Shown piece after piece: positions 1,835 to 46,824 of a DNA stretch of 64,000 nt (position 1 is its first letter; every line of letters starts with the position of its first letter). The stretch comes from Terriglobia bacterium (GTDB lineage Bacteria; Acidobacteriota; Terriglobia; 20CM-2-55-15): assembly GCA_963664115.2 (NCBI GenBank), contig CAXWPJ010000011.1:32001-96000 (forward strand). Reading direction: 5' to 3'. The notes below the pieces were generated by a model. That model was not told where the DNA came from and did not search any database. It saw nothing but the letters and a program-made list of their open reading frames with translations. A program made the position numbers and the translations under genes.

Positions 1835-1889
1835 GCGGATAAGCGGAACAAGCGGGGTCTGACAACTATCAGAGCGCTGACGGTGTCGT
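1835..1889 (+). repeat. 55-bp dispersed repeat, copy 1 (starts GCGGATAAGCGG)
   Basis: 47/55 identical to 7692-7746 by manual alignment. Confidence 0.8.
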
Positions 1890-1896
1890 CGTATGG

Positions 1897-2307
1897 GTGT
1901 TATGTCAATCCGCGCGCGGCCGCAGGCCGTCGCGCGAAGGTCGTGGGACCATCACGCAGGGTACAACACTCTATGCCCAGCGCTGCGCAATGTGCCATGG
2001 TCCGAACGGCGAAGGGACGGATACCCCGGCAGGTGTCGGACCGCTTTTAGTGGCGCCGAATCAACAAGGTACCAGGGGGATCCGGGGATATCGCTTTTCG
2101 ACCACCTTATTCAGCTTCGTCTACCGCGCCATGCCGATGCATCAGGAAAGGACACTCAGTGCCGATGAGGCTTATGCCCTGTCCGCACTTTTGTTATACC
2201 GCAACGGCATCATCAGGGAGAATGAGGAAATGAACTCAACGACCTTGCCCCGGGTCATCATGCCAAACCGGGACGAATGGAGTCCTCCACCGGAAACTTC
2301 AGGATAA
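1897..2307 (+). pseudogene. 5'-truncated c-type cytochrome (SorB/SoxD-like)
   Basis: CAMCHG haem motif, TTLFSFVYRAMP, EAYALSA, MPNRD; no signal peptide or clear start; paralogue of 7079-7570. Confidence 0.7.
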
Positions 2308-2366
2308 CCATCGATCATTAACTTGGTGTACAGCCCCAAAATCCGGGTATTTCCATAACTCACTAG

Positions 2367-4215
2367 TCCCTGAACAAGCGTGATTGACGAGGAAATGATA
2401 GTGCAATAAGAGCGGAAGTACCCGAAATGCCCCCTCTCCGTGCGAAAAAAACCTTGAACAGATTCTTCGGAAAAGGAGGCATTTCAGATGAACGATTATA
2501 CGCGCAAGAACATGAGGAACCGCAAGCGGCGAATCGAACGTCGGCTTGGGGACCGGCATTGGACGGATCAGGTAGAGCCGATGTTTTCGGCGAGCAACAT
2601 TCAGTACGAGATGGGAGAGCGGACGCGGGGCACATCGGTTGGTGGTATCGGGACGATGCAACTGGTGGCGCGGCGGACCGGGCTGATCGAAGCCATCGAC
2701 AAGGGCGTGCATGTGTTGAAGCGGCACCTGCCGTATCACGAGTCGGATCACGTGCTGAACATCGCCTACAACGCCTTGAGCGGAGGAACGTGCCTGGAAG
2801 ACATCGAACTGCGGCGCAACGATGCGGTGTATCTGGATGCGCTGGGAGCGCAACGGATTCCGGATCCGACGACGGCGGGAGACTTCTGCCGGAGATTCGA
2901 GGCCGACGACGTGGAGTGTCTGATGGAGGCAACCAATCAAGTCCGGCTCGGAGTCTGGCGACAGCAACCGGCGGCGTTTTTCGAAGAAGCGGTGTTGGAC
3001 GCGGACGGGACACTGGCCGAAACCACGGGGGAATGCAAGCAAGGGATGGACGTGGCCTACGACGGGACGTGGGGATATCACCCGCTGATGATCTCGCTGG
3101 CCAACACCGCCGAACCGCTGTATCTGGTCAATCGTAGCGGCAACCGGCCGTCGCATGAAGGAGCCGCGGTCCGGTTCGACCAAGCCATCGCATTGTGCCG
3201 GCATGCGGGGTTTCGCCAGATCCTGCTGCGCGGGGACACGGACTTCAGCCAGACCCGGCATCTGGACGGATGGGACGACCAGCAGGTGGGTTTCATATTC
3301 GGGATTGACGCGATGGCGAACCTGAAGGCCCGGGCCGATGAACTGGAGCCGCGCCAGTGGAAGCGCCTGGAACGGCCCGCGAAATACGACGTGGCGACCG
3401 AACCGCGCCAACGTCCCGACAACGTGAAGGAAGAGATCGTTCGGCAGCGCGGTTTCGACAATATCCGCTTGCAGGGTGAGGATGTGGCCGAGTTTCGGTA
3501 TCGACCCGGAGCCTGCGATCGGGACTACCGTGTCGTCGTGGTGCGGAAGAATCTGTCGGTGGCCAAAGGAGAGCAGGTGTTGTTTGACGACATCCGGTAC
3601 TTCTTCTACATTACCAACCGTTCGGATCCGGCCGACCAGATTGTGATGCGTGCCAATCAACGGTGCAATCAGGAGAATCTCATTGAGCAGTTGAAGAACG
3701 GCGTTCAGGCGTTGCGGATGCCGGTCGGAGATCAGACCAGCAACTGGGCCTACATGGTGATCGCGTCACTGGCCTGGACACTGAAAGCGTGGTTTGCATT
3801 GCTGCTTCCCGAAACCGGACGTTGGGGCCAAAAATATCAGGCTGAGAAGCAAACCGTGCTGCGCATGGAGTTCAAAACCTTCTTGAACGCTTTCATGCTT
3901 GTGCCGTGCCAACTCGTGCGCACCGGGCGGCGCATTCTGTTCCGGATCCTGGCCTGGAACCGGTGGTTGCCGGTCTTGTTCCGCGGGGTGGATGTGTTGC
4001 GTCAGCCTCTGCGATGTTGACCCGATCATGACTCTGAGCCCGGGCGATCGAGGTCCCGGTTTCTGTCAACCGTCCAACACCAGCGAGGCTGAACTGAAAC
4101 AGATTCAACAGAAACTCGATACCTGGAACAGGCCATCCGGGAACGGGATTCTATGCCTCGAATTCTATCGGCGCGAACTGGGCCTCGGCGGACTGGTTAT
4201 GCGCTTGTTTTGGGC
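2367..4215 (+). mobile_element. IS1380-family element
   Basis: CTAG TSD at 2363-2366 and 4216-4219; ends TCCCTGAACAAGCG / CGCTTGTTTTGGGC. Confidence 0.88.
2488..4020 (+). CDS. IS1380-family DDE transposase
   Basis: 510 aa; LDADGT, WGYHPL, LLRGDTDF and R.NQENLIEQLKNG motifs. Confidence 0.92.
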   Translation: MNDYTRKNMRNRKRRIERRLGDRHWTDQVEPMFSASNIQYEMGERTRGTSVGGIGTMQLVARRTGLIEAIDKGVHVLKRHLPYHESDHVLNIAYNALSGGTCLEDIELRRNDAVYLDALGAQRIPDPTTAGDFCRRFEADDVECLMEATNQVRLGVWRQQPAAFFEEAVLDADGTLAETTGECKQGMDVAYDGTWGYHPLMISLANTAEPLYLVNRSGNRPSHEGAAVRFDQAIALCRHAGFRQILLRGDTDFSQTRHLDGWDDQQVGFIFGIDAMANLKARADELEPRQWKRLERPAKYDVATEPRQRPDNVKEEIVRQRGFDNIRLQGEDVAEFRYRPGACDRDYRVVVVRKNLSVAKGEQVLFDDIRYFFYITNRSDPADQIVMRANQRCNQENLIEQLKNGVQALRMPVGDQTSNWAYMVIASLAWTLKAWFALLLPETGRWGQKYQAEKQTVLRMEFKTFLNAFMLVPCQLVRTGRRILFRILAWNRWLPVLFRGVDVLRQPLRC

Positions 4216-4357
4216 CTAGTATCCGGAACACGGCGCGAAAGCCCGCGGCAAGTTACAGATCAACAATGAGTTGAATGGCATTCTTGGATTTTTCGATTTC
4301 AGCCTTCCGATTGCGCTTTCGCGGTAATCCAGTGATAGGGGGTGATACCAATGGCGT

Positions 4358-7691: not shown

Positions 7692-7746
7692 GCGGATAAG
7701 CGGTATAAGCAGGGTCTGACGACTATGGTAGCGCTGACAGTGTCGT
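7692..7746 (+). repeat. 55-bp dispersed repeat, copy 2
   Basis: Direct repeat of 1835-1889. Confidence 0.8.
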
Positions 7747-7783
7747 AGATTTGCTTGGTCAAGTCCTGTATCTGGACTCCTCT

Positions 7784-8076
7784 GTCAAGTAGGCGCAGCT
7801 CTCCCGTCAGCTTTCTTCGGCAAAATGCATTCAGCAGGACTGACTAGAAGTTACGAGGTGAGTAGCTAGTCGACTGCACCCGTATCTTCGGCCTCAAAAG
7901 TGGAACTGTATTGTTCCGGGCCATGATGGAAATTTGCGCGCGGGGAGCCAACCGATAAAATAACGGCCTCTAAGGGCCAAAGGACTTGTCGGCGTTGCCC
8001 CGCGCCGGTCTGACCGGTACGCCATCATCTCGAACCTCATCGCAGCTCGCTGAAAAGATATTCCGACTGTTCCGGG
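7784..8076 (-). ncRNA. Predicted bridge/seekRNA-encoding region of the IS1111 element
   Basis: About 290 bp non-coding between the transposase stop and the IR, where IS1111 elements encode their guide RNA; RNA boundaries not determined. Confidence 0.5.
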
Positions 8077-9121
8077 TCAGGCCGCCTGATACCGGGCCTG
8101 ATGGTCACAGTCACGGTTCCAAACCGCCCACACGCGACGCGCCAACTTGTTGGCCAGTGCAACGATTGCCTTGTTGTGTCCGCGGAACTCGTGTTTCTGG
8201 AGACCCCATTGCTGGAGAGGTGTCGGTGTGGCGCCCTCTCGATGGGCACTCCACAACAGGGAACGGCCCCCATGAACCAACAGCATCCGGAGGTAACGAT
8301 CGCCTTGCTTACTGATCCGGCCCATGCGTCGCTGGTTGCCACTGGAATGTTCCCGGGGTGTGAGTCCCAGATAACTGGCAAAATGGCGGGACGTTCGGAA
8401 TCGTTTGATGTTTCCAACAAACCCCACCATTGCCGTTGCCGTTAACAGGCCGATGCCGGGAATCGACGTCAGACGCGCGACCTCAGGCATCTGCCGAGCC
8501 AGCGTCTTCAACTCTTGTTCCACCGATCGTAAGCGAGATTCCAATTCACGGATCTCGCCACACACCTGGTGAAACATCTCCCGAACGACACTGGGGATGA
8601 CGACATCTGCATCTTCGATCAGCTCCATTACCCCCGGCACCAGATGATCCGCTCCGGTCGGGATCACGTAGCCAAACTCCCGTAACAACCCCCGCACCGT
8701 ATTGATCCGTGCGGTTCGGGTTCGCATCCACGCCGAACGGATTCGATGCAATGAGGTCAGTTGCTGTTGGGCCAGGGTTTTGACCGGCACTGGATGAATA
8801 TCGCTGTCACGATAGGCTTCCAACAATCCTTTCACATCCGTACGGTCGGTCTTGTTGCGCCTGACGTAGGGCGTCACATACTGCGGCGAGATCAGAACGA
8901 CCGTGTGTCCCAGTTCCCGGATCTTCCGACCCCAGTAATGGGCGGATCCGCAGGCTTCCATCACCACGGTCGCCAGCTCCTGGTTCGCAAAGAACCCCAG
9001 AAACTTTGCCCGACTTAAACGATAGGTTTTCTCTACATGTTTTCTCTACACCGGGGCGATCTGAAACACCAATTTGGAAAACATTCTTTGCCAGATCCAC
9101 TGCTATCGTTCTATTCTTCAT
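8077..9121 (-). pseudogene. IS110-family recombinase (DEDD + Tnp20), frameshifted
   Basis: MKNRTIAVDLAKNVFQ in one frame; MEACGSAHYW, KTDRTD, SIPGIG and SSG in another; short duplication GTTTTCTCTACA at 9026-9037 / 9039-9050. Confidence 0.88.
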
Positions 9122-9369
9122 CTCGGACTCCTTTTTGTTCACACTCACGTGTTTCGCCCGCTTTATTGCGAGGCTCAAAATGACTGTGGCACTTCGATGC
9201 CGACTCAGTCATCAAAGAGGAGTCCATACCATCAATAAACGACATTGTCGGACAGTGAGAATTGGCGAGCTGAGCGTGTCGCCACATTCCATTGAAACAG
9301 CATGGGATATGGCCAATTGGAGGCCATTCGAGGAACGGCAGGCGAGAGGAGAGTTTCCGTTCGGTGAAA

Positions 9370-9409
9370 TTCTCAATGTCCGAAAAGATGATTTATCAGG
9401 CGTTGAGAA
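9370..9409 (-). repeat. dif-like palindromic site B (inverted orientation)
   Basis: Reverse complement TTCTCA-ACGCCTGATAA-ATCATC-TTTTCGGACAT-TGAGAA. Confidence 0.8.
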
Positions 9410-21328: not shown

Positions 21329-22772
21329 GAGTTATTGTCAAAAGTGGTGTTTAGGAGATTGATTCAAGCGGCGGCCTGATCGACTTGTGTCGCTTCGACA
21401 CCATCGTTGAATTTCACTCCGATGATTACCTTGCTCAGATCATCGAATCCTCGTAATCGTCGCCAATTGTTCTCAGCGCACTGGCCCAGTTTGAACATCA
21501 TGTGCAGCATGCCATCCCGTGCCCAGTTTGAACATCATGTGCAGCATGCCATCAGCCGTCGCGTTCGGGGGCTTCTCTTCCAGTGCAACCTCTGGATCGC
21601 TTCGTTCGGTGTCGAATGGTGGCAAAGGTCGACTCAATGGGATTCGTCGTTCTGATGCTCTGCCAGTGCTTGGCCGGAAAGTCGTAAAAGGCCAGCAGTT
21701 CCTCTCTGTCTTTCTGCAGGCAGAGTGTGGCTTTCGGATACTTCGGTTCATAGGTTTCAATGAACAAGTCGAATGCCTTCTCGGCGTCTGCCTTCGTCTC
21801 GGCCTGCCAGATCGAGTGCAGGGCCTGTTTCGCCTTCGCCTGGACCGACTTGGGCAGGCAGTTGAGGACGTTCATGACTTTGTGCATCCAGCAACGTTGT
21901 TGACGTGTCTCGGGATAGATTTCCTCCAGTGCGGCCCAGAACCCCATCGCACCGTCACCGATGGCCAACTTCGGAACATTCATCCCACGGGACTTCAGCT
22001 TCAACAAGACCTCGCGCCAACTCTGTGTCGATTCCCGTACACCGTCTTCGATCGCCAGGAAACGCTTCTCTCCGCGTTCATTCACGCCGATCACGACCAA
22101 TGCACACAACTTGGTTTGTTCCGCCCGAAGTCCGCTGTAGATGCCGTCGGCCCAGACATAGACCCAGCGATCTGCATCCAAACGCTCCTCGCATCCGAGG
22201 CGGTACTGTTCGCCCCAAACCTGTTTCAACCGCGATACCGTGCTCGCCGACAGACCCTGCGCCTGGGGACCGACAAGAACTTTTAGGGCCTCACCCATCT
22301 CGCCGCTGGAAACGCCTTTCAAATACAACCACGGCACCGCTGCTTCCAGCGACTTCGTCTTCCGAATGTACGGTGGTACCAGGGCCGATCGGAACGTCAC
22401 AGCTTCGCCCGTCTTGGCACGGACCTTCGGGATTTGGACTGTTACCGGACCCAATCCCGTCTGCAGTTCGCGTTCCGGCAGATAACCGTTGCGTACCACC
22501 CCGGCGTTTCCTGTCTCAGTTCGCCGGCCACCGTGCTGGGATAGCAGCTCTGCCAATTCGGCTTCCACTGCGCGTTGGATCAGTTGCTGTGCCCCAACTC
22601 GTAGTAGTTCTGTTACTGGATCCTCAATCGTTTCTCGACCTTCCGGTCCATTCACGTTACTCTTGCTCACAGTGGCGTATCTCCTATGGTTGCTTTGAAG
22701 TTTTGTCACAACAAATCAACCAGATACGCCGCTCTTATTCAATCCCTCAAACACCAGATTCGGTTATAACTC
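21329..22772 (-). mobile_element. IS256-family element, copy 1 (1444 bp; transposase disrupted near its 3' end; no TSD)
   Basis: Ends GAGTTATTGTC / GGTTATAACTC; 59 bp longer than the other copies because of an insertion at 21522-21584. Confidence 0.93.
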
Positions 22773-22806
22773 AGTCCTGAGAAATCATCTTGTCGGAAGT
22801 TGAGAA
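22773..22806 (+). repeat. dif-like palindromic site C (outer left arm cut by IS256)
   Basis: AGTCCTGAGAA-ATCATC-TTGTCGGAAGT-TGAGAA. Confidence 0.85.
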
Positions 22807-22857
22807 AAAAGAAGGGAAAATTTCTTATCGAGTTCCAGATAATCGTAGTTAGGCCAG

Positions 22858-23361
22858 ATGAACTGCGAAACGATCAGACGAGCGTACAACTCTGATTCCC
22901 CACGGATAATTTCGCTCATAGCCGACGTCTATCGAGAGTACGGCGACGAGATCTATCTAGAAGGAGCGGACAAGGATCTAGTTGATATTGAAGGATATTA
23001 CCGACAGGTAAGCGGGGATTTTGTCATATTGGAAAGGAATGACGAAATCGCAGGAACGCACGCCGTACTCCCGCTTGACCTAGCGAACCGCGTCATAACC
23101 TTCAGACGGCTGTACCTTCGGCAGGAGTTGCGTGGGTCGGGTTGCGGAAAGCGGTTGATGAAATGGGCAATCGATTGGTCGATGCGCGAAGGCTATCACT
23201 CAGTAGAGTTTTGGTCTGACATACGATTCCAACGGGCACACAGGTTCTTTCAGCAATTAGGTTTCACGAAAGGGGATACTCGGAATATGACAGATGGAGC
23301 CATGCCCTACTCAGAGTATCGATTCTCAATGAACTTGTTTGGGCAAAATAATATTGCCTAA
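22858..23361 (+). CDS. GNAT family N-acetyltransferase with integron-cassette signature
   Basis: RRLYL..ELRGSGCGKRL acetyl-CoA motif; GTTAGGC at 22848 and GCCTAAC at 23356 overlapping the stop. Confidence 0.88.
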   Translation: MNCETIRRAYNSDSPRIISLIADVYREYGDEIYLEGADKDLVDIEGYYRQVSGDFVILERNDEIAGTHAVLPLDLANRVITFRRLYLRQELRGSGCGKRLMKWAIDWSMREGYHSVEFWSDIRFQRAHRFFQQLGFTKGDTRNMTDGAMPYSEYRFSMNLFGQNNIA

Positions 23362-23460
23362 CACGGGATGCAGTGGACGGCCTTCCGCTGGCGCTCCAGG
23401 CTCCACGGGTGGTCGAGGTCCACGTTTGGGGCCTAACAAGCCGCTGCAGCTGGCGGGGCC
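23356..23460 (+). repeat. Two truncated attC-like left halves
   Basis: GCCTAACACGGGATGCAGTGGACGG (23356) and GCCTAACAAGCCGCTGCAGC (23431); matching right halves absent. Confidence 0.6.
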
Positions 23461-23480
23461 GGCAAAAGAGGTGAAAATGA

Positions 23481-23520
23481 TTCTCAAGTCCTGAGAAATC
23501 ATCTTCTCGGACGTTGAGAA
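23481..23520 (+). repeat. dif-like palindromic site D (complete)
   Basis: TTCTCA-AGTCCTGAGAA-ATCATC-TTCTCGGACGT-TGAGAA, with extra outer IR GGTGAAA (23470) / TTTCACC (23526). Confidence 0.92.
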
Positions 23521-23567
23521 TTGGATTTCACCACTTTTCGGGACCAATCACCACAGCTAGTGACCAT

Positions 23568-23930
23568 ATGAGCCTATCCAGCGCGACCCCTATTCTTAGA
23601 ATCTTCGACGAAGCAAAAGCGAAGGAATTCTATGGCTCTTACTTGGGGTTTTCCGTGGACTGGGAGCATCGGTTTGGTGATGAGTTCCCTCTGTACATGC
23701 AACTGTCCAAAGATAACTGCGTCCTTCATCTTTCCGAACACCACGGCGACGGGACGCCAGGGAGCGCGATTCGCATCGAAACTGATGACGTTGGTGCTTT
23801 GAATCAAGAACTACTGGACAAGGCCTATCGATACGTGAAGCCAAGCGTCGAAGAGAAACCGTGGAACACAAAAGAGATGACGATCACCGATCCGTTTGGC
23901 AATCGATTGATCTTTTTCGAGAACGAATAG
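23568..23930 (+). CDS. VOC/bleomycin-resistance-like glyoxalase family protein
   Basis: PILRIFDE.KAKEFY..YLGF.VDWEHRF, LHLSEHHGD, DPFGNRLIF. Confidence 0.9.
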   Translation: MSLSSATPILRIFDEAKAKEFYGSYLGFSVDWEHRFGDEFPLYMQLSKDNCVLHLSEHHGDGTPGSAIRIETDDVGALNQELLDKAYRYVKPSVEEKPWNTKEMTITDPFGNRLIFFENE

Positions 23931-23942
23931 CCCTGAAATCCG

Positions 23943-23979
23943 TTCTCAAGTCCTGAGAAATCATCTTCTCGGACGTTGA
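23943..23979 (+). repeat. dif-like palindromic site E
   Basis: Identical to site D over TTCTCAAG...GGACGTTGA. Confidence 0.92.
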
Positions 23980-24005
23980 ACTCCAGACTGGTACTCTCTT
24001 CAGTA

Positions 24006-24917
24006 ATGCCTACCGGTAAACCTTGGCTACCTGAGCATATCGTGATGCCAGATGCGGCCGTTCGTCTGATCGAAAGCCAATTCCCGGAGCTTCGACCTGC
24101 GCATATCCAACTTCTAGGTGAGGGTTGGGACAATACGGCCTACGTAGTGAACAGGACTTGGGTTTTCCGGTTTCCTCGCCGAGAGATAGCGGTGGAACTG
24201 CTGCAGACGGAAACTCGCGTCCTTCCTCGAATTGCAGCTCAGTTGCCTTTCCCTATCCCAGTACCAAGATGGGTTGGTAAGCCAACACAAGAGTATGATT
24301 GGCCGTTTGCGGGCTATCGCTTTCTTCCAGGCACCACGGCACTGAGTGTTGGATTGACGCGAGAGCAGAGGAAGGAACTTGCTGCTCCCTTAGCGAATTT
24401 CTTAGCAACTCTACATGCCATTGATCCGGGAGATCTGGAAATTCCGGGAGATAAATTTGGCCGAGCTGACATGGGAAAACGTATTCCACAGTTGCTCTCA
24501 AGTCTTCTGACGATTCGAGGAAAGGGATTGGTTGCTGACGTTTCACCTTGGGAACGGATCGTTGAACAGATGTCATCGGACTTTCAACCGCGGTTGAACA
24601 CATTGTCACACGACGATTTTTCAGCGGAGCATATCCTTGTGGACAACTTTGGACTGCCAAGCGGCGTGATTGACTGGGGCGACATCCACCTAGGAAGCCC
24701 CAGTATGGATTTGGCTATTGCGTTCGGTTTTCTGCCACCCGAGGGTCGCGAAGTATTTTGGGATAGCTATGGAGCCGTCGAAAAGCCGATCCAAATCATG
24801 GCGCGATTTCGTGCTCTCCACGCCGCCGTCATTGGTGTCCTATATGGCGATGATATTGGCGACACTGCTCTCCTGCGCGAGAGCTTATTGGGGATGGACT
24901 TCGCGATAGAGTCGTGA
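24006..24917 (+). CDS. Aminoglycoside-phosphotransferase (APH) family kinase
   Basis: GEGWDN, VFRFPRR, HDDFSAEHIL (Brenner-type motif), VIDWGD. Confidence 0.88.
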   Translation: MPTGKPWLPEHIVMPDAAVRLIESQFPELRPAHIQLLGEGWDNTAYVVNRTWVFRFPRREIAVELLQTETRVLPRIAAQLPFPIPVPRWVGKPTQEYDWPFAGYRFLPGTTALSVGLTREQRKELAAPLANFLATLHAIDPGDLEIPGDKFGRADMGKRIPQLLSSLLTIRGKGLVADVSPWERIVEQMSSDFQPRLNTLSHDDFSAEHILVDNFGLPSGVIDWGDIHLGSPSMDLAIAFGFLPPEGREVFWDSYGAVEKPIQIMARFRALHAAVIGVLYGDDIGDTALLRESLLGMDFAIES

Positions 24918-24959
24918 CCGAGACAATTCCTAGAACTAGACTACGGGAAGTCAGTCCGC

Positions 24960-26344
24960 GAGTTATTGTCAAAAGTGGTGTTTAGGAGATTGATTCAAGC
25001 GGCGGCCTGATCGACTTGTGTCGCTTCGACACCATCGTTGAATTTCACTCCGATGATTACCTTGCTCAGATCATCGAATCCTCGTAATCGTCGCCAATTG
25101 TTCTCAGCGCACTGGCCCAGTTTGAACATCATGTGCAGCATGCCATCCCGTGTCAGGCAACCTCTGGATCGCTTCGTTCGGTGTCGAATGGTGGCAAAGG
25201 TCGACTCAATGGGATTCGTCGTTCTGATGCTCTGCCAGTGCTTGGCCGGAAAGTCGTAAAAGGCCAGCAGTTCCTCTCTGTCTTTCTGCAGGCAGAGTGT
25301 GGCTTTCGGATACTTCGGTTCATAGGTTTCAATGAACAAGTCGAATGCCTTCTCGGCGTCTGCCTTCGTCTCGGCCTGCCAGATCGAGTGCAGGGCCTGT
25401 TTCGCCTTCGCCTGGACCGACTTGGGCAGGCAGTTGAGGACGTTCATGACTTTGTGCATCCAGCAACGTTGTTGACGTGTCTCGGGATAGATTTCCTCCA
25501 GTGCGGCCCAGAACCCCATCGCACCGTCACCGATGGCCAACTTCGGAACATTCATCCCACGGGACTTCAGCTTCAACAAGACCTCGCGCCAACTCTGTGT
25601 CGATTCCCGTACACCGTCTTCGATCGCCAGGAAACGCTTCTCTCCGCGTTCATTCACGCCGATCACGACCAATGCACACAACTTGGTTTGTTCCGCCCGA
25701 AGTCCGCTGTAGATGCCGTCGGCCCAGACATAGACCCAGCGATCTGCATCCAAACGCTCCTCGCATCCGAGGCGGTACTGTTCGCCCCAAACCTGTTTCA
25801 ACCGCGATACCGTGCTCGCCGACAGACCCTGCGCCTGGGGACCGACAAGAACTTTTAGGGCCTCACCCATCTCGCCGCTGGAAACGCCTTTCAAATACAA
25901 CCACGGCACCGCTGCTTCCAGCGACTTCGTCTTCCGAATGTACGGTGGTACCAGGGCCGATCGGAACGTCACAGCTTCGCCCGTCTTGGCACGGACCTTC
26001 GGGATTTGGACTGTTACCGGACCCAATCCCGTCTGCAGTTCGCGTTCCGGCAGATAACCGTTGCGTACCACCCCGGCGTTTCCTGTCTCAGTTCGCCGGC
26101 CACCGTGCTGGGATAGCAGCTCTGCCAATTCGGCTTCCACTGCGCGTTGGATCAGTTGCTGTGCCCCAACTCGTAGTAGTTCTGTTACTGGATCCTCAAT
26201 CGTTTCTCGACCTTCCGGTCCATTCACGTTACTCTTGCTCACAGTGGCGTATCTCCTATGGTTGCTTTGAAGTTTTGTCACAACAAATCAACCAGATACG
26301 CCGCTCTTATTCAATCCCTCAAACACCAGATTCGGTTATAACTC
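24960..26344 (-). mobile_element. IS256-family element, copy 2 (1385 bp, intact)
   Basis: 9-bp TSD TCAGTCCGC at 24951-24959 and 26345-26353. Confidence 0.96.
24995..26281 (-). CDS. IS256-family transposase
   Basis: RNGY, WADG, AIGDG, QRCWMHK, RTTNPIES motifs. Confidence 0.95.
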   Translation of the reverse strand: MTKLQSNHRRYATVSKSNVNGPEGRETIEDPVTELLRVGAQQLIQRAVEAELAELLSQHGGRRTETGNAGVVRNGYLPERELQTGLGPVTVQIPKVRAKTGEAVTFRSALVPPYIRKTKSLEAAVPWLYLKGVSSGEMGEALKVLVGPQAQGLSASTVSRLKQVWGEQYRLGCEERLDADRWVYVWADGIYSGLRAEQTKLCALVVIGVNERGEKRFLAIEDGVRESTQSWREVLLKLKSRGMNVPKLAIGDGAMGFWAALEEIYPETRQQRCWMHKVMNVLNCLPKSVQAKAKQALHSIWQAETKADAEKAFDLFIETYEPKYPKATLCLQKDREELLAFYDFPAKHWQSIRTTNPIESTFATIRHRTKRSRGCLTRDGMLHMMFKLGQCAENNWRRLRGFDDLSKVIIGVKFNDGVEATQVDQAAA

Positions 26345-26372
26345 TCAGTCCGCACGGTAGATGATCTAACCG

Positions 26373-26412
26373 CTCAAGTCCTGAGAAATCATCTTCTCGG
26401 ACGTTGAGAATT
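26373..26412 (+). repeat. dif-like palindromic site F
   Basis: CTCAAGTCCTGAGAAATCATCTTCTCGGACGTTGAGAATT, identical to site D. Confidence 0.92.
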
Positions 26413-26572
26413 GGCAGCGCCGGGCAGAAACAACCGAGTCCGTCGAGTCATCCCCTAAAACCAACAACTTAGAGCCGAGGCGGTGGGGCGAGTCGCTATC
26501 GAGGCGGACGAGGTGTGTGGCTCGGTTGCGTCGGTGGTTTCACCAGCCTGTGGCACGTCCCCATCGCGGCCA

Positions 26573-26995
26573 TTACTCTTCCTGATAGACCCACGCACCA
26601 ACCAACGATGCAACTGGTATTTCAACGACAGTCCAGATCCAGTGCACCAGCACACCGCCGATAGGAATCAGGTCGAACCTGAGCAAAGCGGCATAAGGCA
26701 CAAGGTCGATCGAGATCCAGTAGAACATTCCGCCAAGGATGGCCGTCGTTGAGCCCGCGCCGAATCGAGGACGGAGCGCTGCGTATAGCCAGACGATCAA
26801 TATGCCCAGTGCTGCGGAGTAGACCGCCAAGAAAACGAGCCCCTCCGTCTGGCCAAGGCCCTGTAGACCATGGCTCTCAATAAATCCAACGATCTGTTCT
26901 CTCAGCACTAGAATCCGTGCAGCCGTGCTAACGAATACGATCACACCGGCCAGTAATCCCCCCAGCACAACACGTCCTGTTTTGATGGAACTCAT
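26573..26995 (-). CDS. Four-TM hypothetical membrane protein
   Basis: RBS GGAGG; GRVVLGGLLAG, WLYAALRPRFGAG, GAWVYQE. Confidence 0.8.
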   Translation of the reverse strand: MSSIKTGRVVLGGLLAGVIVFVSTAARILVLREQIVGFIESHGLQGLGQTEGLVFLAVYSAALGILIVWLYAALRPRFGAGSTTAILGGMFYWISIDLVPYAALLRFDLIPIGGVLVHWIWTVVEIPVASLVGAWVYQEE

Positions 26996-27282
26996 GTCGT
27001 GGCCCTCCTCGACGGCGGTTGGTAAATTGTGGCTACGTTACCCGATCTTTGCGTTGGGGCATAATCATTTGCACTAGTCGGATCGGCAGGCGCGAGAGGG
27101 TGCCCCAGACGCCCTAGTTGACCCAGCATTTCCACTCCATTCTATATTTACTTACAGAACTTCACCGGGATAGAGATTGTTAGGGCAACTGGGTCACTTG
27201 AGGCAGATCGGGTGTGCCCTATGGTTCAGGCTGGCTGGGCTCTGCTAGCATGACGGTCAGAGTCTGAGAAGGGCACGTGTCA

Positions 27283-28014
27283 ATGAAGAGAACGAACCGC
27301 GACTACTGGAACGCCACAAGCGATGGCTACCAAGATGCTCATGGGGACAGTCTCTCCGCAACAGCGTTGGCTTGGGGTGTGTGGCGAATCCCTGAATCTG
27401 AACTGGGGATTCTTGGAGCCGTCAAAGGGGTCGATATTCTTGAACTTGGTTGCGGAGCTGCTCAGTGGTCGATTGCTCTTGATGAAGTCGGTGCACAAGT
27501 TGTAGGGATCGACTTTTCGGAGCGACAGCTGAAACATGCCCGAAAGAGTTCGGAGGTTATTCCCCTAGTGCAAGGTAGTGCCGAGTCTCTGCCTTTTAAC
27601 GCTGAATCATTCGTCATTGTCTTCTGTGATCACGGCGCGACAACTTTTTCGCCGCCCGAACTGACAGTTGCAGAGGCGTCGCGGGTGCTCAGGCCCAGTG
27701 GTATTTTCGCGTTTAGCATGTCGAGTCCGATTCGCGACATTTGTTGGGACGCGAACGAGGACAGAGTTTCGTCACAACTCGCTGCTGATTACTTTGGTCT
27801 GCACGCCATAGAGGATGGTGACCAAACGTGCTACCAGCTGCCCTACGGTGGGTGGATTCGACTGTTTCGTCAACACGCCCTTCAGGTTGAGGATCTTGTC
27901 GAACTACGAGCACCGAATAATGCCGAAACTACCTATTCGGATTTTGTGCCGAGGTCGTGGGCCGAGCGGTGGCCTGCTGAAAACATCTGGAAGCTCAGGA
28001 AGCTCGCCATCTGA
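27283..28014 (+). CDS. Class I SAM-dependent methyltransferase
   Basis: ILELGCGAAQWS motif I, AESLPF, RVLRPSG. Confidence 0.9.
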   Translation: MKRTNRDYWNATSDGYQDAHGDSLSATALAWGVWRIPESELGILGAVKGVDILELGCGAAQWSIALDEVGAQVVGIDFSERQLKHARKSSEVIPLVQGSAESLPFNAESFVIVFCDHGATTFSPPELTVAEASRVLRPSGIFAFSMSSPIRDICWDANEDRVSSQLAADYFGLHAIEDGDQTCYQLPYGGWIRLFRQHALQVEDLVELRAPNNAETTYSDFVPRSWAERWPAENIWKLRKLAI

Positions 28015-28017
28015 AGC

Positions 28018-28115
28018 ATGCCCCTCCAGATCTACGTCGATGCCTACGCAGGCTACCGAGCCAACGAGCGGCCCAAGCAGATTACGCTCGACGACGAAAT
28101 CCATGAAAATCGATC
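28018..28115 (+). pseudogene. N-terminal fragment of a conserved hypothetical protein
   Basis: MPLQIYVDAYAGYRANERP..., cut off at the stop of the convergent nuclease gene. Confidence 0.4.
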
Positions 28116-28116
28116 T

Positions 28117-29103
28117 TCACATAATCGTCTTGTGTGCTCTTGAACCCCTCTTCAACTCGCCGAAAGGAACTGAGAATACCCCCTCTTCGCCAAGCAATCG
28201 ACGCCTGAGGCGAAGAAAATCGACGAGTGGAATCTCTCCCGACAGAATCACCATCAAGTCATGTCCGCTCATGGCGAAGAAGGTAGCCTGTTTTCCACGG
28301 ACGATGGCCTGTGAAGCATCTTGGCTCATTCCATTCAGTGCGATGAGCAGTCCCCGAGTGTACGCGGACTTACCTTCAATCTTTCCTCTGAAAACTAGGA
28401 GTTCTGACTCTGGCACCGGTTGTTGTACCCATTTTGCCTCAAGCAAGTAGACTTCGTGATCCAATTCAAATGAGCCATCTATCTGCTCACCGAGGACCCG
28501 AAAAGGCTTGCGTGGTGCGAGGTCAGATGCTTCAAAAAGCTTGTTGAGCAATCGTTCTAACTCGAAACCTGCAGCATTTCTATCGACCATCGTGCAGAGT
28601 TCTAAGAGTTGGTTCTTCAGCTGTTCAAGCTCTTCGTTTCGCCGATCTCGCACAGTTGCTTGGGTTTTCTCCCGGCGAATCGCTTCCTCAAACAATTCCT
28701 TAGCTCGATCACCAGAGTCATATGACAGCGAGACGAGGAGATCGGGATCCCAAAGCTCTGGGAACTTGAATCCAACTTCGAGGATTAGTCCGTTTAGTGA
28801 CTTAATTTCCTCTGATCTAACCGGATTGCCCTTTTTTTGCCGATAGGCAATGCCTTGATTGACAATTTCTAGGATGAGCCGCTGGAAGTAACCTCGATCA
28901 TTTTCGAGCGTACGTCTAATCAAAGTAGCGATTGCCGCGGTCTTGCTTCCACCGGGCCAGTTGTCTCCAACTCCAGCCTTGGCTGCAACGGAGGCAAACG
29001 TGACGTGATTCTTCCATTTGCGATTGCCGGAGCCAGGCAGAAAGTCATACAGCAATTCCGCCATGGCAGCGAGAGCGACCGATTCTTTGGGTGTTAGGGG
29101 CAC
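28117..29103 (-). CDS. Mrr-like PD-(D/E)xK restriction endonuclease domain protein
   Basis: GFELE...EQIDGSF.....YLLEAKW; probable GTG start at 29103 after GAGGTGGA. Confidence 0.82.
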   Translation of the reverse strand: MPLTPKESVALAAMAELLYDFLPGSGNRKWKNHVTFASVAAKAGVGDNWPGGSKTAAIATLIRRTLENDRGYFQRLILEIVNQGIAYRQKKGNPVRSEEIKSLNGLILEVGFKFPELWDPDLLVSLSYDSGDRAKELFEEAIRREKTQATVRDRRNEELEQLKNQLLELCTMVDRNAAGFELERLLNKLFEASDLAPRKPFRVLGEQIDGSFELDHEVYLLEAKWVQQPVPESELLVFRGKIEGKSAYTRGLLIALNGMSQDASQAIVRGKQATFFAMSGHDLMVILSGEIPLVDFLRLRRRLLGEEGVFSVPFGELKRGSRAHKTIM

Positions 29104-29229
29104 ACTCCACCTCAGACCCGGCTGCACGCACGGGCGACGTACGCCGAGGCATGCCTGCGAAGCGTTGCAGACAGATAACAAACATTCTGTCGGACAGGTG
29201 GACAAGTCAGGGGATTTCGCCGGCATTAC

Positions 29230-29354
29230 TTGTGGTGAGCAGCGTGAAGCCGCCGTGTCCGAGAGCACAGGATGGTCGCGTCATTCGGCGGATCTTGATC
29301 GACCGGCAGGATCTGGATGCGTTTATTGACCGGAACAACGAGACAATGGGTTGA
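29230..29354 (+). pseudogene. Excisionase/HTH remnant
   Basis: RRILIDRQDLDAFIDRN* resembles the C-terminus of excisionase-type HTH proteins. Confidence 0.55.
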
Positions 29355-29527
29355 GCTTTAGACAAGAGGCGTAGTCTGCGTCACGTTCACGCCACCGCTC
29401 CGTGATACCCTGCCAGCAAGGATTCCCGCCGAAAATACGTCTTCTTTGGAGAGTGCGTTGGGGAACGCTCTTAATTTGGAGGGGGACGTGCGTCAAAAAG
29501 ATATTCTGAACAGTCGTGAATAAGGTG

Positions 29528-30150
29528 ATGAAAGTCAAAGTGGACCGAATATGGCCAACTGCCATTTCATTTGTGTTGATCTGGCATTTGTCGATCACAC
29601 CTGCATTGGCAGCTCAGACTCAATATCCATTACTGAACGAGTCACGTCAGATCGCAGCAGGGACGTTTGTAGAGCTTAACTTTGAGGTTGGCTCAGATGT
29701 CGGAGCGAGACTCGTGGGTAGCGTCAGTGCACAGGGAGGCGCAGGTAACGACATTCGCCTGTGGGTCCTTTCTGAAGATGAACGAGCCCAGTGGGCACCG
29801 GGGCGACCAGTGCTTGCCCCTACCTATTATTCTGGCCAACTAAGTGTGATCAATCTCGACGTACCACTAGAAGAAGGCCAGTATTATGTCCTTCTCGACA
29901 ATACCTTTTCGATTTTTTCCACGAAAACTGTAGCCGCGAATCTGGCAGTTCTTGTAGGCCCTCCATCAATTGCGAGTGTGACAACAGCTTTCAAGAAGAC
30001 ACGACGGCCGGTGAGCCATGCGAGACGGCTCTGGTGCTCTCCATCGGCGATCTGAAAGGCTTGGCTCATATTGGTGTAATTCAGGCGTTGAAGGATCGGG
30101 GAATCGAGATCAACTGCATCTTCGGGAACAGCATGGGTTCGTTGGTCGGC
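29528..30150 (+). pseudogene. Exported beta-sandwich (GOLD-like) domain joined to a patatin N-terminus; frameshifted and cut by IS256
   Basis: Signal peptide, GQYYVLLDNTFS; in a shifted frame ALVLSIGDLKGLAHIGV...FGNSMG (GxSxG). Confidence 0.7.
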
Positions 30151-31535
30151 GAGTTATTGTCAAAAGTGGTGTTTAGGAGATTGATTCAAGCGGCGGCCTG
30201 ATCGACTTGTGTCGCTTCGACACCATCGTTGAATTTCACTCCGATGATTACCTTGCTCAGATCATCGAATCCTCGTAATCGTCGCCAATTGTTCTCAGCG
30301 CACTGGCCCAGTTTGAACATCATGTGCAGCATGCCATCCCGTGTCAGGCAACCTCTGGATCGCTTCGTTCGGTGTCGAATGGTGGCAAAGGTCGACTCAA
30401 TGGGATTCGTCGTTCTGATGCTCTGCCAGTGCTTGGCCGGAAAGTCGTAAAAGGCCAGCAGTTCCTCTCTGTCTTTCTGCAGGCAGAGTGTGGCTTTCGG
30501 ATACTTCGGTTCATAGGTTTCAATGAACAAGTCGAATGCCTTCTCGGCGTCTGCCTTCGTCTCGGCCTGCCAGATCGAGTGCAGGGCCTGTTTCGCCTTC
30601 GCCTGGACCGACTTGGGCAGGCAGTTGAGGACGTTCATGACTTTGTGCATCCAGCAACGTTGTTGACGTGTCTCGGGATAGATTTCCTCCAGTGCGGCCC
30701 AGAACCCCATCGCACCGTCACCGATGGCCAACTTCGGAACATTCATCCCACGGGACTTCAGCTTCAACAAGACCTCGCGCCAACTCTGTGTCGATTCCCG
30801 TACACCGTCTTCGATCGCCAGGAAACGCTTCTCTCCGCGTTCATTCACGCCGATCACGACCAATGCACACAACTTGGTTTGTTCCGCCCGAAGTCCGCTG
30901 TAGATGCCGTCGGCCCAGACATAGACCCAGCGATCTGCATCCAAACGCTCCTCGCATCCGAGGCGGTACTGTTCGCCCCAAACCTGTTTCAACCGCGATA
31001 CCGTGCTCGCCGACAGACCCTGCGCCTGGGGACCGACAAGAACTTTTAGGGCCTCACCCATCTCGCCGCTGGAAACGCCTTTCAAATACAACCACGGCAC
31101 CGCTGCTTCCAGCGACTTCGTCTTCCGAATGTACGGTGGTACCAGGGCCGATCGGAACGTCACAGCTTCGCCCGTCTTGGCACGGACCTTCGGGATTTGG
31201 ACTGTTACCGGACCCAATCCCGTCTGCAGTTCGCGTTCCGGCAGATAACCGTTGCGTACCACCCCGGCGTTTCCTGTCTCAGTTCGCCGGCCACCGTGCT
31301 GGGATAGCAGCTCTGCCAATTCGGCTTCCACTGCGCGTTGGATCAGTTGCTGTGCCCCAACTCGTAGTAGTTCTGTTACTGGATCCTCAATCGTTTCTCG
31401 ACCTTCCGGTCCATTCACGTTACTCTTGCTCACAGTGGCGTATCTCCTATGGTTGCTTTGAAGTTTTGTCACAACAAATCAACCAGATACGCCGCTCTTA
31501 TTCAATCCCTCAAACACCAGATTCGGTTATAACTC
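30151..31535 (-). mobile_element. IS256-family element, copy 3 (1385 bp, no TSD)
   Basis: Same ends as copy 2; flanks TTGGTCGGC / ATCTCTCTC differ. Confidence 0.95.
30186..31472 (-). CDS. IS256-family transposase
   Basis: Protein identical to copy 2 in the ORF track. Confidence 0.95.
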   Translation of the reverse strand: MTKLQSNHRRYATVSKSNVNGPEGRETIEDPVTELLRVGAQQLIQRAVEAELAELLSQHGGRRTETGNAGVVRNGYLPERELQTGLGPVTVQIPKVRAKTGEAVTFRSALVPPYIRKTKSLEAAVPWLYLKGVSSGEMGEALKVLVGPQAQGLSASTVSRLKQVWGEQYRLGCEERLDADRWVYVWADGIYSGLRAEQTKLCALVVIGVNERGEKRFLAIEDGVRESTQSWREVLLKLKSRGMNVPKLAIGDGAMGFWAALEEIYPETRQQRCWMHKVMNVLNCLPKSVQAKAKQALHSIWQAETKADAEKAFDLFIETYEPKYPKATLCLQKDREELLAFYDFPAKHWQSIRTTNPIESTFATIRHRTKRSRGCLTRDGMLHMMFKLGQCAENNWRRLRGFDDLSKVIIGVKFNDGVEATQVDQAAA

Positions 31536-32284
31536 ATCTCTCTCAGCCTTTCGGTTTCAAACTCGTTCAGATCGTAATCTGTGAAATCGGGATCTCGATA
31601 CATCATGTACGCTTGCAAGAATCGGGAGGCGGAGGCGCGATAGGGTCTGCCGTTTTTTCCTTTGACGAACCCCAAGAGTTGCGTGATGAACCAAGTATTC
31701 CATCGATTCCGAAACGGATGCTTCTTAGCTTCCTTGAGGTGGTTGAGAACGTAATCGCCGTAGCCGTCCAGAAGATCAGGAAGAAAATCAAACAGCCGTG
31801 GATCAATCTCGACTTTGTCCCTTTGACCAGCGGCTTTGTATTCCAATCGAACAGGTCGCTCGTCTCCAGTGTTTGCGTCCCTTGCCATGTGCTTGAGGAA
31901 CACTTGAGGAATGACCAGTGCAGGAGTCGCGTTAAGCTCACGCATCTCCTCAACGACTTCCCGTATGCGCTTGACGGCCCCTTTGGTCTCACCGATCTCT
32001 TCCGGTCGTAGTCCGCCGAATGCAGGCATCCTCCCGCCACGGCCTCCAAGCTGTTTGTTTGGAATGGAAGGAGTGCAGTAGATCGACTCGGCTAGCAGCA
32101 GGATCTGTTCTCGGGCTGACGCCTCTGTCTCAGGGCAGCTAGGGTCCTCACGGCAATTTTTCATCATACCCGCTACCAGTTCGTCGAGAGCTTTCTTCAC
32201 GTTGGCGGGGAGCTTCATCTTGGACGGGTCCTTCCAATGCCGCGCAATTTTCTTTTTAGCTTTCTTTTTCGCCATCGGGTCCAT
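31536..32284 (-). pseudogene. Hypothetical protein, 3'-truncated by IS256, divergent from the integrase unit
   Basis: Long ORF with RBS GGAGGA that reads into the IS end. Confidence 0.6.
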
Positions 32285-33147: not shown

Positions 33148-34532
33148 GAGTTATAACCGAATCTGGTGTTTGAGGGATTGAGAAAAAGCGGCGTATCTGG
33201 TTGATTTGTTGTGACAAAACTTCAAAGCAACCAAAGGAGATACGCCGCTGTGAGCAAGAGTAACGTGAATGGACCGGAAGGTCGAGAAACGATTGGAGAT
33301 CCGGTGACCGAGCTATTACGAGTTGGAGCGCAGCAACTGATCCAGCAGGCCGTGGAAGCCGAATTGGCAGAACTGCTATCCCAGCACGGTGATCGACGAA
33401 CCGAGACGGGCAACGCCGGGGTGGTGCGCAACGGTTATCTGCCAGAACGCGAACTGCAGACCGGCCTGGGTCCGGTAACGGTGCAAATTCCGAAGGTCCG
33501 TGCCAAGACAGGCGAAGCTGTGACGTTCCGATCGGCGCTGGTACCGCCCTACATTCGGAAGACGAAATCGCTGGAAGCAGCGGTGCCGTGGTTGTATTTG
33601 AAAGGCGTCTCCAGCGGCGAGATGGGGGACGCCCTAAGAGTTCTTGTCGGTCCCCATGCGCAGGGACTGTCGGCGAGTACGGTATCGCGATTGAAACAGT
33701 CCTGGGCCGAGCAGTACCGCCGTGGAAGCGAGGAGCGTTTGGATGCCGATCGCTGGGTCTATGTCTGGGCCGACGGCATCTACAGCGGACTTCGGGCGGA
33801 ACAAAGCAAGTTGTGCGCATTGGTCGTGATCGGCGTGAATGAACGCGGAGAGAAGCGTTTTCTGGCGATCGAGGATGGTATCCGGGAATCGACACAGAGT
33901 TGGCGTGAGGTCTTGTTGAAGCTGAAGTCACGTGGAATGAATATCCCGGAGTTGGCCATCGGTGACGGTGCGATGGGGTTCTGGGCCGCACTGGAAGAGA
34001 TCTATCCCAAGACACGCCAACAACGCTGCTGGATGCACAAAGTCATGAACGTGCTCAACTGCCTGCCCAAGTCGGCCCAGCCGAAGGCAAAGCAGGCCTT
34101 GCACTCGATCTGGCAGGCCGAGACAAAGGCGGACGCCGAGAAGGCATTCGACCTGTTCATTGAAACCTATGAGCCGAAGTATCCGAAAGCCACTCTCTGC
34201 CTCCAGAAAGACAGAGAAGAACTGCTGGCCTTCTTCGACTTCCCGGCCAAGCACTGGCAGAGCATCCGAACGACGAATCCCATCGAGTCGACCTTTGCCA
34301 CCATTCGCCACCGGACCAAGCGATCCAGGGGGTGCCTGACACGGGACGGCATGTTGCACATGATGTTCAAACTCGGCCAATGTGCCCAGAAGAACTGGCG
34401 ACGATTACGAGGGTTCGATGATCTGGCCAAGGTGATTACTGGAGTGAAATTCAACGATGGAATCGAAGTGACAAACGTCGATCAGGCCGCCGCTTGAATC
34501 AATCTTCCAAACACCACTTTTGACAATAACTC
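33148..34532 (+). mobile_element. IS256-family element, copy 4 (diverged isoform)
   Basis: 9-bp TSD TTGGGTTTC at 33139-33147 and 34533-34541; 1385 bp; many substitutions relative to copies 1-3. Confidence 0.96.
33211..34497 (+). CDS. IS256-family transposase (isoform)
   Basis: Same motifs as the other copies, 428 aa. Confidence 0.95.
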   Translation: MTKLQSNQRRYAAVSKSNVNGPEGRETIGDPVTELLRVGAQQLIQQAVEAELAELLSQHGDRRTETGNAGVVRNGYLPERELQTGLGPVTVQIPKVRAKTGEAVTFRSALVPPYIRKTKSLEAAVPWLYLKGVSSGEMGDALRVLVGPHAQGLSASTVSRLKQSWAEQYRRGSEERLDADRWVYVWADGIYSGLRAEQSKLCALVVIGVNERGEKRFLAIEDGIRESTQSWREVLLKLKSRGMNIPELAIGDGAMGFWAALEEIYPKTRQQRCWMHKVMNVLNCLPKSAQPKAKQALHSIWQAETKADAEKAFDLFIETYEPKYPKATLCLQKDREELLAFFDFPAKHWQSIRTTNPIESTFATIRHRTKRSRGCLTRDGMLHMMFKLGQCAQKNWRRLRGFDDLAKVITGVKFNDGIEVTNVDQAAA

Positions 34533-35219
34533 TTGGGTTTCAGACTTATGCCCTAATCCTCTTCGCGGTTCGTACTGGGCTACGGATGGGAGAACTATTC
34601 GGGCTTCAGTGGTCAGATCTAGATTTGGACTCCCGATTCGTTGAGGTCCGTCGAAATATCGTAAGGGGGCGGACTGGAACGCCGAAAAGCGGCTACCTTC
34701 GTCGAGTAGACTTATCTAACCAGTTAGTAAAGGCGTTGATGGATCTGCAACGCCGGAGGAAAGAGGAATACTTTAAATTAGGCGAAGACATGCCTGAGTG
34801 GGTCTTTATCAACGGAGAAGGCCGACCGCTTGATCAAAACAATTTGAGGAATCGAATCTTCTACCGGGTGCTCGACTCGGCAGGTCTGCGGCGCGTTCGC
34901 TTCCACGACTTAAGGCATTCCTTTGCAAGTCTGTTACTCCAACAAGGTGAATCTCTTGCGTATGTGAAGGAACAGCTTGGGCACGAATCCATTAAGATGA
35001 CCGTGGATATTTACGGCCATCTGATTCCGGGCACCAACAAGCAGGCCGTGGACCGGCTCGACGATGTCGGGGCGGTGAACTTTTAGAACAGTCGGACAGT
35101 GTGAGTGCCGGGGAGTCCGGCTCGAAACCTACTCGCCCCAAAGATCGGACTCCCCACAGATCCCCCCACAGGCGAATAGTCGCGGGTTCGCTCGCCTACG
35201 TAAGTTGTCTGTTATCAAG

Positions 35220-35293
35220 TACGCCCAGAGGGATTCGAACCCCCGACCTACGGATTCGAAGTCCGACGCTCTATCCAGCTGAGCTATGGGCGC
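35220..35293 (-). tRNA. tRNA-Arg (TCG)
   Basis: Minus strand GCGCCCATAGCTCAGCTGGATAGAGCGTCGGACTTCGAATCCG...GGTTCGAATCCCTCTGGGCGTA. Confidence 0.96.
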
Positions 35294-35480
35294 GTGCGAC
35301 TGATTCTAACAGGTTAGAACGGATTTCGGCAGGAGGGACAGGCTCCGAAAGCGTCATTGTGCCCGGATTTGTGCTCATCGCGAGGGCATCGTCAGGTTAA
35401 CTCCCTGCGCGACACGATGCCGTCCGGCTATATAGCTCTCGTCGCAGGCCCCCTGAATCGTTTCTGCTTATCGTGCGAAC

Positions 35481-36329: not shown

Positions 36330-36618
36330 CCTCCTAAAGCACGCGGATTCATTCGCAGCTCAGAACGCTCGTCCTCAGATCCGAGGATCAAGCATCTAGA
36401 GAACCCCTCCGGCCTGTTCCACGCTCGTCCTACAGGCCGGAGGCCAAAGCGTCGACAGAGCCCGTCTCAAATGGCGTACTTCAAACCGAACCTGCATGAT
36501 TCGCGGGTCATTGACCGACGTGATCCTCCAAAAACGGCTGTTCTCACCGGGTTTCGGCATTGTTGCGTTGGCCGCCGGCTGTCCGTCGTCGCGCAGCCAT
36601 ACCTGAACCAGTCCTTTT

Positions 36619-40355: not shown

Positions 40356-40388
40356 GGCATTTAACGTTTGCAGCGAGGAGAACAAGGA

Positions 40389-42643: not shown

Positions 42644-42677
42644 GAAGAACAACCAAAAAACCTCAGGACGTAGCGTT

Positions 42678-43262: not shown

Positions 43263-43349
43263 TTTTCAGTTAGGGATTGATAAGGAAACCGTAGACGGAT
43301 TGGCGGCATCCTCAGCAATCGCAGCCGCCCATGTCCGCCCCGCGGGAGA

Positions 43350-44246: not shown

Positions 44247-44575
44247 TGAAGCACCTCCAGAAATGGTGTGTCATCGTTGTCTCAGCCGAAGCGCAGAGAC
44301 CCACCCCACCACAACAATTATGTATGGGGGCGATGGTGGGGAGCATTGCACGAATGCCTGTTGGATTGCACCACTCGATTCGATTCCGTCCAGGGATCCG
44401 TCTGCGTCTCTCTTTCGTTTGGCCCATGGAAGAGCAAAAAGTGTCTTCAACCCCTTTTACGATAAATTGAATAACTACAGGTCACCGCAAAATTTCTTGA
44501 CAGCACAGAACGCCGCCCGTAGGCTTCACCCGAGTACAGTAGTTTCCAACGCCAGCAAGAATTATGGAGGAACTG

Positions 44576-46770: not shown

Positions 46771-46824
46771 GGCGGATCTTCCTTAAGTATCACCTGTGAC
46801 TCGGCACACAGTCTACTGAGGGTG

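Follow-up and report, generated by a model that had tools for sequence, protein, structure and literature searches.

Insertion sequences (IS) of the IS1111 group carry sub-terminal inverted repeats of 11–13 bp, set in from the left end by 7 bp and from the right end by 3 bp, and two of them, ISKpn4 and ISPa25, are presented as attC-targeting in PMC11187229. Further, dif sites have been predicted for three of three Acidobacteria (PMC3025954). In the literature searched, which covered few subscription papers, no description was found of the repeat reported here or of an IS1111 element whose guide directs it to a dif-like site; the tables of PMC11208160 could hold relatives.

The element described below lies in a window of 64,000 nucleotides (the whole stretch of DNA analysed) from a Terriglobia genome, termed G000; related genomes are termed G001 and so on. 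Overall, we consider it probable that this IS is guided by RNA to a 40-bp repeat, and that genuine exchange takes place at this repeat, which is not the host dif and most likely serves as a tyrosine-recombinase site.

Anatomy and relatives of the element

The element occupies 7769..9234 on the minus strand (1466 bp, against 1458 bp in intact copies). Its left end (9216..9234, minus strand) is made up of a 7-nt extension and the sub-terminal inverted repeat, and its right end (7769..7788, minus strand) of an outward TTGACA, the sub-terminal inverted repeat and a 3-nt extension. The inverted repeat is perfect over 11 bp (7773–7783 and 9216–9226); read as 12 bp with one mismatch, it leaves the extensions of 3 and 7 nt. 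The DEDD recombinase gene (8077..9121, minus strand; Pfam PF01548/PF02371) encodes 344 aa in intact copies. In the window it is frameshifted by a 10-bp insertion (9040..9049, minus strand), which cuts the first catalytic Asp off from the rest; the insertion is missing from seven other aligned copies, and high-depth contigs without it occur in runs X12, X14, X15 and X17. A non-coding region of 308 nt (7769–8076) lies 3' of the gene.

The IS1111 type assigned by the first-pass annotation is borne out by the end layout, by the Pfam domains and by an NF033542 score of 316 bits for one intact copy (cut-off 140). Five features of the group are found: a DEDD recombinase of about 330–350 aa, frameshifted in the window copy; sub-terminal inverted repeats of 11–13 bp set 7 bp and 3 bp from the left and right ends; a long downstream non-coding region; one target entered in one orientation with no duplication, none being present at the 7769–9234 insertion; and top- then bottom-strand target matches in an internal loop, varying with the target. 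The element is almost certainly an IS1111-family member with well-supported RNA guides. As an IS it is an ordinary family member, and the unusual part is its target and the convergence on it.

The predicted circle junction contains TTGACA with a poor −10 element. Neither a circle junction nor a joined empty site was present in the contigs of 8 of 24 runs, although contigs cannot show absence. The closest named relatives, ISKpn4, ISPa62, ISPpu24 and ISPa25, have 46–48% identity over 95–99% of the protein. In a tree of 18 proteins, which omits 6 of 24 loci without a long enough frame, the elements of this bacterial family group together, members that target the site being intermingled with others at an unresolved fork.

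Insertion positions in the genome

The target is laid out as 17-6-17, with an 11-6-11 core and a spacer of two classes (A, ATCATC; B, ACGACA). Removing 7769–9234 joins TGGTCAAGTCCTG (7756–7768) to ATAA-ACGACA-TTGTCGGACAGTGAGAA (9235–9261), in agreement with the precise insertion that had been proposed. Four intact copies of 1458 bp, each encoding the 344-aa protein, are present elsewhere in the genome (one at G000:C12:332441–333898) and differ at 0–1 positions, which points to recent spread; because they exist, a frame-repaired recombinase is not needed. Twelve right ends were found in the genome. Ten of them come after AAGTCC[TC]G in the repeat's left arm; another, belonging to a 74%-identical fragment, comes after CAACGTCCG at the mirror position of the right arm, and the last lies away from any site. 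Similarly, seven of the eight left ends precede ATAAA and the spacer, and the other abuts the interior of another transposase gene. The flanks of other copies had been put forward as a check on the targeting, and unrelated targets combined with an RNA lacking a guide as the case against it; all but two of the 12 right ends and all but one of the 8 left ends share the same repeat position, and the guides match the site. All seven site-located left ends have the arm variant GATAA. Among empty sites just 35 of 147 carry it, which suggests that the element selects this variant. One IS fragment, at G000:C12:18906, sits in the left arm, yet its left guide misfits that site. Two copies of the IS1111 non-coding region are interrupted by an IS1380-type element (DDE_Tnp_1_4), which also occurs in the window at 2363–4220 and in about 75 near-identical copies elsewhere in G000.

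The rebuilt window site is a hybrid. The segment 7756..7768 (plus strand) holds left-arm positions 1–13 in a class A context, while 9235..9261 (plus strand) holds the rest of the left arm (ATAA), the class B spacer ACGACA and the right arm, in a class B right context. The left context of strong intact B sites differs from that of the window in 24 of 24 cases (22 by motif and two by eye), and one degenerate IS-free hybrid site is present at G000:C9:908907. Both IS junctions were found in run X1 as exact short contigs, each with fewer than 31 letters on the IS side, and the window copy is a mosaic of alleles from other copies. Exchange between two copies after insertion is a likely origin of the hybrid; a pre-existing hybrid site is possible.

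Predicted guides and their targets

A predicted seek/bridge RNA core was placed at 7869..8030 (minus strand) by alignment of 16 homologues. The right guide CAAGUCCU (7981..7988, minus strand) is complementary to positions 2–9 right of the insertion point, and the left guide UUUAUC(G) (7953..7959, minus strand) is identical, apart from a wobble, to TTTAT/C(A) across the insertion point, marked here by a stroke. The two are positioned on opposite sides of one internal loop, whose 5' strand carries CAAGUCCU and whose 3' strand carries UUUAUCG, and both matches occur jointly in 18 of 5000 shuffled non-coding regions. A guide in the downstream non-coding region, anticipated by the first-pass annotation, is thereby found, its segments matching AAGTCCT and ATAAA of the site. 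A left guide reading TTTAT would also explain the GATAA variant at all seven site-located left ends. A candidate donor guide, AGAUAC (7882..7887, minus strand), matches the right end of the element, and by eye it follows the right-end sequence in ISPa25, L002, L003, L004 and L007. CCAUCAU was rejected as a left-end guide, as it ignores the end variants TGATGG and TGATGA and sits in a stem.

Natural variation among relatives gives further support. Parsing gave 35 copies in 14 guide classes; three further copies (L055, L056 and one in L072) were not parsed, and two distant ones were omitted. Right guides matched their own sites at 7.41 of 8 positions, compared with 4.78 when classes were permuted (0 of 20,000), and left guides at 5.45 of 6 compared with 3.91 (4 of 20,000; eight classes having a left flank), although these permutation figures are overstated because the guide classes are related to each other. 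Single bases were tracked: UUUAUC occurs with TTTAT/C, UUUAAC with TTTAA/C (L001), UUUCUC with TTTCT/C (L043, L056) and AGGUCCUG with CAGGACCT (L035). In addition, the guide AACGUCCG pairs with six right-arm insertions in G002, and relatives in G007, G017, G021, G022 and G029, genomes with few or no sites, have different guides and different targets. Misfits were seen in L027 (5 of 8, its right flank being the other arm) and L018 (6 of 8).

In the 16-sequence alignment the variable columns are located in the internal loop, and structural covariation is modest, with two-sided changes in 4 of 41 pairs. Folding had been suggested as a check on the guides; loop guides matching the target were indeed obtained, while for the non-coding region as a whole the predicted fold is no better than that of shuffled sequences (z −0.5). 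No Rfam match was found at E ≤ 1. These copies offer a natural series of reprogrammed IS1111 guides, with single-base tracking and register shifts, from which the pairing rules of IS1111 bridge recombinases may be derived, and intact, recently spread copies are on hand for testing those rules.

The RNA of the element would likely steer intact sister copies to the 40-bp repeat. By extension from ISEc11 and ISKpn4 (PMC11187229), the element may excise as a circle, its recombinase may bind the RNA, and strands may be exchanged without duplication. The IS would gain an abundant intergenic landing pad, probably disabling the site that it enters.

Number, arrangement and spread of the repeat

A weight matrix of the repeat matches the genome 176 times, 163 of them at ≥25 bits (139 class A and 24 class B), with no match in one shuffled genome, and the abundance claimed for it is confirmed by these 163 strong copies. 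The spacer ATCATC is found in 127 of 168 sites, and the window has four matches to the site pattern against none in 100 shuffles. Pattern counts were 131 in G000, 81 in G002, 46 in G003, 11 in G001 and 2 in G004; elsewhere they were 0–5 in one other genus and 0 in the remaining 51 genomes of that search. A second repeat pattern had no match in 400 other genomes of the phylum, and viral contigs had no exact match.

Class A sites are tandem, and class B sites are inverted, in many cases with an A site 58 or 148 bp away; five B/A pairs with the 148-bp distance are intact. In the window, a conserved 108-bp non-coding module (9262..9369, no strand assigned) separates the B site from an intact inverted class A site (9370..9409, minus strand), and similar sequence occurs at no fewer than four other loci (at least four). 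Further downstream, four class A sites form an array at 22767..26410 (22767, 23481, 23943 and 26371; plus strand) and bound GNAT, glyoxalase and APH-like genes; each segment of the array recurs at another locus, beginning at a site. More generally, non-kinase cassettes hold GNAT, glyoxalase, APH-like and metabolic genes. Cassette polarity received a weak test: a stop lies ≤60 nt upstream in 46 of 139 A sites, compared with a random rate of 14% and with 26 for the mirror side. After the GNAT gene of one site-bounded cassette (window 23357–23470), attC-like remnants were seen by eye, which suggests capture of integron cassettes.

Many sites accompany Ser/Thr kinase genes. Seventy-one of the 139 A sites follow a kinase gene end or remnant, 18 of the 24 B sites lie ahead of a kinase start, and the 116 kinase C-terminal motifs in G000, mostly short remnants, are followed by a left arm in 83 cases. 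Such an association is what would be expected if the IS were RNA-guided and the repeat passive, having multiplied along with a paralogous Ser/Thr kinase module, for instance in the role of a regulator binding site, and being reshuffled by short-homology recombination between 40-bp copies. We hold this reading to be unlikely. A regulator site right after a stop codon would be unusual, many A sites bound non-kinase genes, and the fixed, asymmetric 6-bp spacer in two classes, the fixed relative orientation and the tolerated variable positions, which are symmetric across both arms, fit a recombinase core site. Two results given below, the breadth of the crossovers and the outcome of the named-family enzyme searches, would also suit a passive repeat.

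Other elements landing in the repeat

Further elements have landed in the same repeat. A sister IS lineage inserts at the mirror position in the right arm, and runs X14 and X15 contain a junction between a related right end and the right arm of a class B site. The spacer of the repeat also harbours another IS110-family element, 1538 bp long and with 23% protein identity (under the NF033542 cut-off), at L128 (G000:C11:28.9–30.5 kb) and in seven more copies. All eight of its left ends lie in the spacer, and its candidate loop guides, CAAGAUG and UUAAAUC, were matched in 0 of 5000 shuffles, one class only being represented. For DDE elements (L129, L130 and about 20 other ends in G000), 22 of 24 ends fall within the spacer. 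Assignment of these to IS1182 was dropped, the one copy tested being IS30.

With three differently programmed RNA-guided elements at the left arm, right arm and spacer, it is conceivable that IS110-family enzymes themselves do much of the shuffling between copies. Hybrids at IS junctions (in the window, in L027 and in G000:C3) and a site pair, C2:265587 and C6:45053, whose left arms diverge immediately to the right of where the IS cuts could be read in this way. Yet sites far outnumber elements and occur where no element was found nearby (G007, G017), flank rejoining was not detected for ISEc11 in PMC11187229, and close IS relatives have unrelated targets, so that targeting of the repeat looks secondary. 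Shuffling by the elements is rated as quite improbable.

The repeat compared with dif, attC and REP sites

The first-pass annotation called the target dif-like. The repeat does have two 11-bp arms around a centre within the 6–8 bp of dif and pdif sites, and one arm agrees in part with the XerC arm of the host dif, at 7–8 of 11 positions in 106 of 139 distinct copies. However, a canonical host dif is present in single copy at G000:C2:108.1 kb (L131), beside a GC-skew change, and conserved across the family, with one exact match to the dif pattern in 10 listed genomes; the repeat is not a single chromosomal terminus copy. In the orientation best fitting the XerC arm, its other arm agrees with the host XerD arm at no more than 6 of 11 positions in all 139 copies. 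With a separate canonical dif and the XerD arm missing, the repeat was rejected as the chromosomal dif, and the term dif-like does not hold in the sense of a host XerCD site.

A true Xer site of the pdif type, used by host XerC and XerD together, would account for the 11-6-11 core and the partly XerC-like arm; inverted A/B pairs recall pdif modules, and XerC and XerD are orthologues common to the three site-rich genomes. Given the arm without XerD character, the separate dif conserved across the family and a mostly tandem, not alternating, order of sites, we regard this as very improbable. In G010:C328 and C383 (relatives of the L010 and L017 type), sites join an GTCCGATAA arm, like the right arm of the repeat read backwards, to a canonical XerD arm, and may connect the repeat with Xer sites.

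A second repeat of about 100 bp is present in 23 copies in G000, in full at window 1835–1936 and truncated at 7692–7748 (plus strand), where it abuts the site. In its 3' part, a spacer and XerD arm resembling those of the host dif (by eye, about 20 of 28 positions agree) precede a GC-rich hairpin, and three near matches occur in G001. It makes a stronger candidate for a pdif or Xer-exploiting site than the 40-bp repeat does.

The repeat consensus folds as a bulged 16-bp hairpin, the nearest named IS relatives target attC, and RAYT-like genes are present, so we considered a single-stranded hairpin, of REP or attC type, that would owe its spread to an HUH transposase or an integron integrase. 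Pairing kept by covariation, as in REP and attC, is absent (51 for paired variable positions versus 59 shuffled); the RAYT-like genes score under the cut-off, and no sites flank them at the loci read in G002 and G003; and an integron-integrase-like gene is 195 kb from the nearest site. We give the hairpin reading hardly any credence and treat the repeat as a double-stranded site.

Exchange at the repeat and candidate enzymes

Signs of exchange were found at the sites. Of 27 site pairs sharing ≥150 nt, 17 are one-sided, with identity ending at the site, some of these counting one cassette repeatedly. Site windows make up 0.2% of the genome and hold 17 of 133 ends of low-copy duplications, compared with 0.6 expected from 74 ends within 10 kb, which indicates that the repeat bounds shuffled gene cassettes. 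Rare right-arm variants track the downstream cassette in four pairs. Crossovers are not pinned to the spacer, as in some pairs the arm variants depart from the shared side. Near-identical duplications of 7–16 kb connect contigs C11 and C6 (window 23471–31536 and 33148–51160 versus G000:C6; C11:2.6–9.5 kb versus C6:38–45 kb), two of which begin at a site. Targeting by the IS had been expected to give independent evidence that the sites are abundant and functional; it speaks for abundant, long-lived sites, while a recombination role rests on the duplication breakpoints.

Among the named families searched, no dedicated recombinase accompanied the sites in all three site-rich genomes (G000, G002, G003), and the only tyrosine recombinases common to these genomes, among those read, are XerC and XerD. 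Host XerC, with or without XerD, would be the only candidate enzyme left by these searches. A tyrosine recombinase gene lies between two inverted B sites (L019:4563–5770; G000:C5:52.0–53.3 kb). As the cognate enzyme, the tyrosine recombinase at G000:C5:52.2–53.1 kb was rejected: it was not found in G002, G003 or G004 with that query, and 12 homologous loci are site-free. IS91-linked tyrosine recombinases are near sites at some G000 and G002 loci and at none of the G003 loci read (30 of 39 matches), and no serine resolvase or RAYT-like gene was tied to sites. A reading of the repeat as transposon terminal repeats with a palindromic empty target was also rejected, there being only a few deletion-like right–right joins and no left–left circle junction. 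For a G003 module beside leuS, the empty-locus comparison gave no synteny in five genomes.

The repeat may be pictured as a family-restricted, double-stranded, protein-bound site (17-6-17, two spacer classes) where DNA segments are exchanged. It would most likely serve a tyrosine recombinase, with tandem A sites bounding gene cassettes and B sites, in inverted orientation, marking the 5' end of Ser/Thr kinase modules. A more specific version, which we offer tentatively and at somewhat less than even odds, is that one Terriglobia family has an undescribed chromosomal system for shuffling cassettes, with the repeat as its core site. Starting from kinase-module ends, about 170 double-stranded sites would allow integron-like capture and reordering of genes with no attC hairpins, canonical XerD arm or neighbouring integrase, and would have been stable enough for three RNA-guided elements and an IS30 to evolve separately to land there.

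Comparison with known systems

The seekRNA or bridge RNA of ISEc11 and ISXne4 (PMC11187229; PMC11208160) resembles the RNA predicted here in its downstream non-coding location, in a top-strand match preceding a bottom-strand match, and in natural reprogramming among close relatives. It differs in that a single family here shows 14 guide classes, and in that one 40-bp site is the common target of three separately programmed elements, the RNA described here being a prediction. The IS1111-attC group (ISKpn4, ISPa25, ISPa62, ISPpu24) is alike in end architecture, has a similar downstream loop scaffold and likewise targets a repeated site bounding gene cassettes. In contrast, the target of the window element is the 40-bp repeat and not attC, and the element belongs to a clade of its own bacterial family whose members carry many different guides.

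Acinetobacter pdif/xrs sites and their IS1202-family visitors (ISAba32 group), as portrayed in 10.1101/2022.12.17.520857 and PMC12907356, offer another parallel, comprising many 11-6-11 sites that bound one to a few genes, form islands and are targeted by IS. Unlike the repeat, which has no XerD arm and is mostly tandem with one spacer, those sites resemble the host dif, and the ISAba32-group elements are DDE elements inserting 5–6 bp beside the site, whereas the IS described here insert inside it. Integron cassette arrays similarly have tandem co-oriented sites and identical cassettes in different arrays, and some cassettes here contain attC-like remnants (by eye); the repeat differs in its absent hairpin covariation, its fixed length and the lack of a cognate integrase beside the arrays. 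The repeat works like pdif or an integron array, yet is a member of neither. A family-restricted site bounding mobile gene cassettes that fits none of dif/pdif, attC and REP thus comes with a short list of enzymes to test.
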